A DNA stretch of 64,000 nt, from the sequence record OZ335959.1. The stretch is one strand, 5' to 3'. Positions 15,233 to 16,299 of the stretch are shown one piece after another. Positions within the stretch are counted from its first letter, which is position 1, and every line of letters begins with the position of its first letter. The position numbers were made by a program, and so were the translations under genes. The notes under the pieces were generated by a model. That model did not search any database. It worked only from the letters and a program-made list of their open reading frames with translations, and was not told where the DNA came from. Source of the DNA: a phage.

Positions 15233-16093
15233 TTATACCGCCATCTTTCCTTTAATTGGCGGGTGAGATTCGTAACCTTTAAGAACGAAATCTTTAGGTC
15301 TAAGTTTAAGAACATATTTTAATTGTTCTTTAGTAGAAAGATATCGAAATTTATAAGGTAGACCACTTATTACCAGCTCACAAAGCTCTTTAGGTTCACG
15401 ACGCAAAATTTCTTTACATTGTTCTACGTGATTCATATAGATATGAGTATTACCACCAGAAAATATCAAATCTCCCGGAATAAGATTACACATCTTAGCT
15501 ACAATATGAACTAATGCAGCATATGATGCAATATTAAATGGAAGACCGAGGAAAACATCTACCGAACGTTGATACCACTGCAAATCCAAATAGCCATTAC
15601 GCACATTAAACTGATAGAACATATGACAAGGTGGTAATGCCATATATTTAAGTTCAGCTGGATTCCATGCAGAAACAATTTGACGCCTATCATTTGGTAG
15701 TTTTTTAATACGATCAACAACTTCTATAATTTGGTCTACACCACCAAAATCGCGCCATTGTTTTCCATAAATTGGACCAAGTTCACCACTATGGTATCCT
15801 AAATCTTTTGCTTGATTTTCGTAATTTTCATCCCAGACTGTTTTGCCTTGAATTAATGAATCATGTTGAATTAATCGCAAATCATTGACATTTGTGCTTC
15901 CCGATAAAAACCATATTAGTTCAGCAATGCAAGCTTTCCAGGCGAGCTTCTTAGTCGTTACTGCAGGAAAACCTTTAGTTAAATCCCAGCGTAATTTAGT
16001 ACCGAACAAAGCAATTGTTCCTGTGCCTGTTCGGTCATCGGTTTCGTAGCCATTTTCTAGGATATCTTTAATTAAAAATTGGTATTGTTTCAT
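15233..16093 (-). CDS. td: thymidylate synthase (uninterrupted, no intron)
   Basis: 286 aa from MKQYQ; continuous ORF across the site where T4 td carries its intron; conserved TS motifs incl. PPCH. Confidence 0.93.
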   Translation of the reverse strand: MKQYQFLIKDILENGYETDDRTGTGTIALFGTKLRWDLTKGFPAVTTKKLAWKACIAELIWFLSGSTNVNDLRLIQHDSLIQGKTVWDENYENQAKDLGYHSGELGPIYGKQWRDFGGVDQIIEVVDRIKKLPNDRRQIVSAWNPAELKYMALPPCHMFYQFNVRNGYLDLQWYQRSVDVFLGLPFNIASYAALVHIVAKMCNLIPGDLIFSGGNTHIYMNHVEQCKEILRREPKELCELVISGLPYKFRYLSTKEQLKYVLKLRPKDFVLKGYESHPPIKGKMAV

Positions 16094-16299
16094 TAGTTCA
16101 TCCAAGAATACGTAGAAGGATATTTGGCAAAGTTAGGCTTATATCCTAATTTAACCATTTGTTTTGCTTTGCGAGTAAATCCTAAAGAACGCTCACCTTT
16201 AAGATATTGTTTTGGTGTCATAGGCCCTTGATGCATCTGCCGACAAATAAAAAGGGCCATAGCATTAGGAACATCCTTAACTTTTAATTTATTGCTCAT
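16093..16299 (-). CDS. hypothetical basic protein (68 aa) wedged between frd and td
   Basis: ORF whose ATG overlaps frd stop (ATGA) and whose stop overlaps td ATG (TAATG). Confidence 0.45.

Follow-up and report, generated by a model that had tools for sequence, protein, structure and literature searches.

In bacteriophage T4, the genes for dihydrofolate reductase (frd) and thymidylate synthase (td) are annotated as overlapping directly by 4 nt, and those passages of the 2010 review by Petrov et al. (PMC2993671) that name frd and td list them only as auxiliary metabolism genes. In both T4 and T6, a group I intron with I-TevI interrupts td. The span between these frd and td flanks is about 810 nt long in T6, T2, RB6, RB14, RB51 and many other phages, and it carries the 115-amino-acid (aa) RB32ORF229c (PHROG 1928) with short spacers of its own.

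Here we analyse the corresponding junction in a 64,000-nt stretch of phage DNA (sequence record OZ335959.1; hereafter 'the window'), a T4-like (Tequatrovirus) genome segment in which a 68-codon open reading frame (ORF) stands between frd and td. We find that this ORF is a genuine gene but not a new one, being known both as an annotated hypothetical protein and as a PHROG family.

Position and junctions of the 68-codon gene

The ORF, with its TAA stop, occupies positions 16093–16299 on the minus strand, within the gene order 32, frd.3, frd.2, frd.1 (DUF5417), a DUF7247 gene, a PHROG 3183 gene, frd, the ORF, td, nrdA.2 (DUF5496), nrdA.1 (DUF4326), nrdA, nrdB and denA. Upstream, frd (16296–16880, minus strand) encodes a 194-aa protein that starts MIKLVFAYS and has 85.6% amino acid identity to T4 Frd; downstream, td (15233–16093, minus strand) is an uninterrupted frame of 286 aa without a group I intron, its product being 97.8% identical to T4 Td over exon 1. 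Both junctions described in a sequence-only reading of the window are present in the sequence and in the list of ORFs. At 16296–16299 (minus strand), the motif ATGA joins the frd stop TGA (16298–16296) to the ORF start ATG (16299–16297), and at 16091–16095 (minus strand), TAATG joins the ORF stop TAA (16095–16093) to the td ATG (16093–16091), the two sharing one base. The product is basic, as that reading had it: 7.9 kDa with a pI of 10.3, 13 lysines and arginines against 2 aspartates and glutamates, and a net charge of about +10.6.

Alignment of the window with T4, whose direct overlap the sequence-only reading had stated correctly, gives a difference of exactly 204 nt at this point. The inserted sequence begins ATGA(GC), and the td start, ATGA(AA), then follows. 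About 60 nt upstream of the ORF start are collinear with the sequence preceding the td ATG in T4; the ORF therefore initiates in the very context from which td starts in T4, comprising the last frd codons and the ATGA overlap. For td itself, we infer a putative ribosome-binding site in the motif GGATGA (16098–16103, minus strand), a partial Shine–Dalgarno-like match 5–10 nt upstream of the td ATG that is encoded by the W-M-N codons of the ORF (last codons UGG AUG AAC UAA).

No promoter-like or terminator-like site was found between frd and td, and a search of the region for RNA elements returned only a 17-bit noise match in Rfam, compared with a gathering score of 84. Judged by the absence of such intervening sites, frd, the ORF and td lie in one transcription unit, with nrdA also co-transcribed. 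Same-strand stop/start overlaps at both ends, with no such site between them, place the ORF so that ribosomes could pass from frd through the ORF to td without release, in agreement with the coupling first proposed. If this coupling is efficient, the ORF product would be made in amounts similar to Frd and Td, and translation of td would depend on ribosomes finishing the ORF. Coupling at both ends had also been offered as an argument for a real gene. The overlaps are real, but they are weak evidence by themselves because such overlaps are ordinary here: stop/start overlaps are routine in these operons according to the T4 annotation, and the frd start is itself joined to the preceding gene by TAATG.

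Conservation and naming of the family

The ORF is nevertheless real, as that reading had concluded, because it is conserved and under purifying selection. It matches the PHROG 9550 profile over its full length (residues 1–68 on positions 1–68 of 68, E = 1.3e-45), and tblastn searches with the 68-aa protein recovered 238 phage records, 134 of them at 95% identity or more, about 30, from T4-like phages of Klebsiella, Enterobacter and Serratia, at 60–90%, and 72, from phAPEC8-like myoviruses, at less than 60%. Homologues with about 43% identity are recognizable in unrelated myoviruses. Proteins identical at every residue occupy the same frd–td position in dozens of genomes, and 136 phage records cover at least 80% of a 601-nt junction region. 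In random sequence with this composition, a frame as long as this one would be open by chance about 0.5% of the time. Between genera, dN/dS of the ORF is 0.08–0.28, and its pN (0.13–0.25) can be compared with 0.13–0.18 for Td and 0.36–0.43 for Frd; at the protein level, the ORF thus diverges about as much as Td and less than Frd.

A profile search of 1.84 billion cluster representatives returned 15 clusters only. These consist of short proteins with a common motif pattern, M(K)xNKxKVxxVP...LWLxR..HQ...KKG..FGF..A.KM..LGYKP.Y..YPS.YSW.D, the few longer or shorter ones being weak or truncated matches. As judged from these searches, the 68-aa family is narrow, well conserved and restricted to phages. 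An HMM search of six-frame ORFs for a paralogue elsewhere in the window gave nothing below E = 0.9.

The exact protein is encoded on 332 public contigs, always under a hypothetical or uncharacterized name, and identical proteins have been deposited as 'hypothetical protein' (AIS73551.1 among others). Full-text literature searches for the ORF, PHROG 9550 or RB32ORF229c found nothing. The sequence-only reading had named, as the case that would tell against its proposal, the same ORF being annotated and characterized in T4-like references; annotated it is, as 'hypothetical protein', in more than a hundred genomes of T4-like phages, and no characterization was found. Annotation of the family is uneven. 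The ORF is left unannotated in the records of JS98 (locus L006, 3001–3207), JS10 and Paracelsus, which hold it at 98.5% identity, and it is mislabelled without Pfam support as 'DUF4858' (Shinka) and as 'flagellar biosynthesis protein' (PYPS2T, MH809535).

Three alleles at the frd–td junction

The frd–td junction of Tequatrovirus has three alleles. The T6-type junction, with the 115-aa PHROG 1928 gene, occurs in about 356 records, the window-type junction, with the 68-aa gene, in about 136, and the T4-type direct overlap in only 5 of the 60 rows taken at even intervals from the junction search, all of these counts including duplicate RefSeq and GenBank entries and near-identical isolates. The direct overlap of T4 is a minority allele among sequenced Tequatroviruses.

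The ORF–td pair is also found in four other T4-like lineages, namely Dhakavirus, Marfavirus, Kanagawavirus and that of Serratia phage 4S, which is not assigned to a genus. The Klebsiella phage Marfa, the Enterobacter phage CIP9 and 4S carry, in order, frd, PHROG 1928 (in one or two copies), the 68-aa gene and td, and in all three the 68-aa gene ends on the td start. The TAATG junction (TGGATGRACTAATGAAACAATA) recurs in JS98, Marfa and 4S, with a GTGA variant in CIP9. Dhakavirus is polymorphic: JS98 has the ORF and MX01 a direct ATGA overlap. One Mosigvirus likewise has a direct frd–td overlap. The frd stop and the td ATG are boundaries common to all alleles. Because ATGA is repeated at the joints, a gene there is easily lost through short-homology deletion and just as readily acquired by recombination. 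An ORF 'inserted' or 'wedged in' between frd and td, as first described, is an accurate picture relative to T4, but it does not generalize, given that the T4 overlap is the minority allele and that the pair occurs in the four other lineages; the ORF is clearly 'extra' with respect to T4 only.

The PHROG 1928 gene (about 115–126 aa) is the commonest Tequatrovirus junction allele and is duplicated in CIP9. We located it at 1726–2073 in the T6 locus (L014), and at 3143–3496, 2826–3504 and 3124–3504 in loci L003, L004 and L005, respectively. Its protein has no Pfam match, and its best PDB profile match (Gp16 of 9m7n, E = 0.041) is non-significant. The BASEL record KarlGJung names this allele 'putative homing endonuclease', a label to which neither search lends support.

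A link between the ORF and the td intron was considered and rejected, no pattern being apparent: the window has the ORF and an intronless td, Shinka has the ORF and a split td, T6 and T4 lack the ORF and have the intron, and BYEP02 lacks the ORF and is intronless. In Shinka, td is annotated in two pieces with a gap of about 315 nt and no endonuclease gene. Several homing-endonuclease insertions of T4 are also absent from the window (11190–14675 and 18562–20223, both minus strand). There, nrdB is a single 389-aa frame without an intron or I-TevIII, nrdA and nrdB are spaced by 51 nt without mobE or nrdB.1, and gene 32 is followed directly by gene 59, without segG.

Exchange of the cassette between genera

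A tract of the window at 16041–16299 (minus strand) is 97–98% identical to Dhakavirus JS98, compared with 72–85% in its flanks, as measured by sliding identity and by a site map of the window, JS98 and MX01. The JS98-like tract spans the ORF ATG to about 55 nt into td. Within the ORF, 200 of 204 nt are identical between JS98 and the window, and dS between the two is 0.08, against 0.56 in frd and 2.8 in td. JS98 tracks its genus-mate MX01, which is without the ORF, to 3 nt before the ORF ATG and again from about 60 nt into td. On these sequence comparisons, the tract is the footprint of a recent exchange of a 204-nt cassette between Tequatrovirus and Dhakavirus, with crossovers mapping to the conserved end of frd and the first 60 nt or so of td. 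A similar disparity is seen in IME341-like loci, where the ORF is 98.5% identical, compared with 76% for Frd and 81–84% for Td. The precise transfer of this cassette into JS98 illustrates, cleanly and on a small scale, how T4-like genomes exchange modules.

A second mosaic tract lies within frd at about 16510–16600 (minus strand), where JS98 agrees with the window and not with its genus-mate MX01; window–JS98 identity at about 16520–16820 is 87–97%, against 73–85% around it. From this second tract it follows that frd is itself a recombinant between genera. Elsewhere, an 8.6-kb IMG/VR contig with a Tequatrovirus-like locus (L024; Frd 96%, Td 90%) holds a copy of the ORF at 893–1097 whose match is limited to 79% identity and begins only near residue 17; this copy may be divergent or damaged.

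Homologues away from td

Outside the T4-like phages, the family occurs in other genomic neighbourhoods. We examined 12 loci of non-T4-like phages and mobile elements, and none has td or frd in the fetched flanks. The association with td is complete among T4-like loci, all of which have td adjacent, and absent from the other group (0 of 12). In phAPEC8, the homologue belongs to a series of some 30 small, hypothetical genes of early type, and metagenomic relatives lie among small ORFs near genes for a PIF1-type helicase, a DnaB-type helicase and an RNA ligase. In an E. coli-associated cluster, the homologue is a stand-alone gene on contigs of up to 452 kb. A scan of IMG/VR for further contexts yielded 10 loci, all in groups already seen. 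In the opposite direction, about 4,100 phage records encode a ThyA homologue, compared with the 238 that have the 68-aa ORF.

The most distant cluster of the family (P0045/P0073, 74 aa; loci L029–L032, 8001–8225) lies between convergent neighbours and is also present in E. coli assemblies. Genes nearby encode DEDDh_C, ankyrin-like, acetyltransferase, DUF723 and Shufflon_N domains. Rather than a T4-like phage, the element that hosts this cluster may be a phage of very large size or a plasmid.

Likely role of the gene product

AlphaFold2 (AF2) models of the 68-aa protein place helices at residues 13–24, 29–39 and 43–50, and two runs agree. The pLDDT was 75 with 24 sequences and 83 with 33, the five models of the second run spanning 79.5–83. 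In the model, the extended N- and C-terminal segments are in contact, and G40, which is invariant, falls in the turn before the basic third helix. No significant structural match to the predicted three-helix fold was found, a PDB sequence profile search gave no match even at E = 10, and Pfam, NCBIfam and PADLOC searches with the ORF and 33 family members returned scattered chance matches only. With its predicted compact three-helix fold and basic N- and C-terminal arms, the product would most likely act by binding a polyanion. From charge and predicted fold only, our best guess is that it is accessory, is made early and binds nucleic acid or some other polyanion. We tentatively put nucleic acid first as that partner, at less than even odds; an acidic host or phage protein, bound by a factor of host takeover or counter-defence, is conceivable but unlikely. 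By analogy with what is established for frd and td in T4, the protein would be made early, before DNA replication.

The ORF is dispensable, because phages without it exist (T4, T6, MX01 and the Mosigvirus), and its distribution suggests that it is not tied to Td. We consider it probable that the ORF is an accessory PHROG 9550 gene found in large, virulent phages of enterobacteria, that it represents one of three interchangeable junction alleles and that its product acts independently of Td. Its position before td would then reflect inherited gene order and not a functional partnership. One observation runs counter: across the five T4-like lineages, the upstream genes vary but the ORF keeps its place at the start codon of td, which is compatible with a td-related role. 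As a narrow, strongly conserved and basic family without a recognizable fold, PHROG 9550 is a reasonable, if not outstanding, choice when small proteins of phages are to be screened for function.

Several narrower readings can be set against this accessory-gene interpretation. The one that survives best is an effector of host takeover or counter-defence: a small protein, made early, would bind and neutralize a host protein and be kept or lost according to the hosts met. Such a role would suit a dispensable gene with an orphan fold that is patchy within genera, alternates with two other alleles at one site, was recently transferred between genera and has homologues in early small-ORF clusters of unrelated myoviruses. 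The same pattern, however, fits any accessory gene, and the protein has no similarity to catalogued defence or anti-defence proteins (PADLOC, Pfam and NCBIfam); PADLOC, which matched none of the 33 members, is a library of defence systems rather than of phage counter-defence. We regard this role as conceivable but unlikely.

The sequence-only reading had instead raised the possibility of a modulator of the dNTP-synthetase complex. On this view, the protein would be a partner or modulator of thymidylate synthase or of the T4 complex, made together with Td by translational coupling. The ORF does end on the td start in every T4-like locus examined, while zero to two genes separate it from frd; it belongs to the same transcript as frd, td and nrdA, and is as conserved between genera as Td at the protein level. 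But gene order in T4-like phages is conserved by descent, so that adjacency is expected anyway, and adjacency is all that the suggestion had to go on. Neither td nor frd lies in the flanks of the homologues in Phapecoctavirus, other large phages and the E. coli-associated element, one of these homologues being a stand-alone gene, and most T4-like phages with a closely related Td do without the ORF. Together with the excess of ThyA-encoding records, these 12 loci speak against the suggestion, which we now hold to be improbable. A more specific form, in which the protein is a dedicated small partner that tunes Td activity or tethers Td, along with the dNTP-synthetase complex, to DNA or to the acidic gp32 tail, seems to us more improbable still. 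If it were true, the homologues elsewhere would serve a distantly encoded or host ThyA, and a textbook enzyme complex would gain a regulatory subunit that was not known before and has a new fold.

A frame kept only as a spacer or leader to deliver ribosomes to td, with a non-functional protein, would account for the GGATGA that the last codons supply upstream of the td ATG and for an overlap that favours reinitiation. This reading is contradicted by conservation in loci without td, where the amino acid sequence, including the C-terminal YSW(M/F)D, is kept at 40–45% identity, and by a dN/dS well below 1; it is very improbable. The remnant or DNA-binding module of a free-standing homing endonuclease once located between frd and td, an idea to which the many such enzymes between conserved genes of T-even genomes and the 'putative homing endonuclease' label of one record on the alternative allele lend some colour, is effectively refuted and has almost no chance of being correct, as no nuclease, NUMOD or I-TevI-like module is present (no GIY-YIG, HNH or NUMOD match, no Pfam match in 33 members, and hhalign probabilities of 0.3% against I-TevI and 0.4% against PHROG 1928, which itself has no Pfam match) and the family is full-length, under purifying selection and found in many phages.

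Comparison with known systems

The ORF of the window is a full-length member of PHROG 9550, and we found no difference between it and the family. Tequatrovirus and Dhakavirus phages, among them Shigella phage pSs-1, Escherichia phage ACG-C40 and Yersinia phage fPS-90, encode identical or near-identical hypothetical proteins. Small tri-helical nucleic-acid binders of the helix-turn-helix or homeodomain-like kind resemble the product in size (about 70 aa), in strongly basic character and in having three predicted helices, a topology that is compatible but not diagnostic; sequence and structure comparisons of the 68-aa protein with helix-turn-helix families gave no significant match.

RB32ORF229c (PHROG 1928) is likewise an accessory gene, in the same slot, and in Marfa, CIP9 and 4S it and the 68-aa gene follow one another in tandem. 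It differs in length (115 aa) and is unrelated in sequence by the hhalign comparison given above, and in T6 it is set off by intergenic spacers rather than by the stop/start overlaps of the window ORF. The T4 junction belongs to the same operon, shares its upstream initiation context with the window and likewise has a 4-nt stop/start overlap, but it lacks the 204 nt and is one allele of a polymorphic site, not necessarily the ancestral one. T4 is accordingly a poor reference for the frd–td junction, at which most of its relatives carry one of two unrelated small genes.
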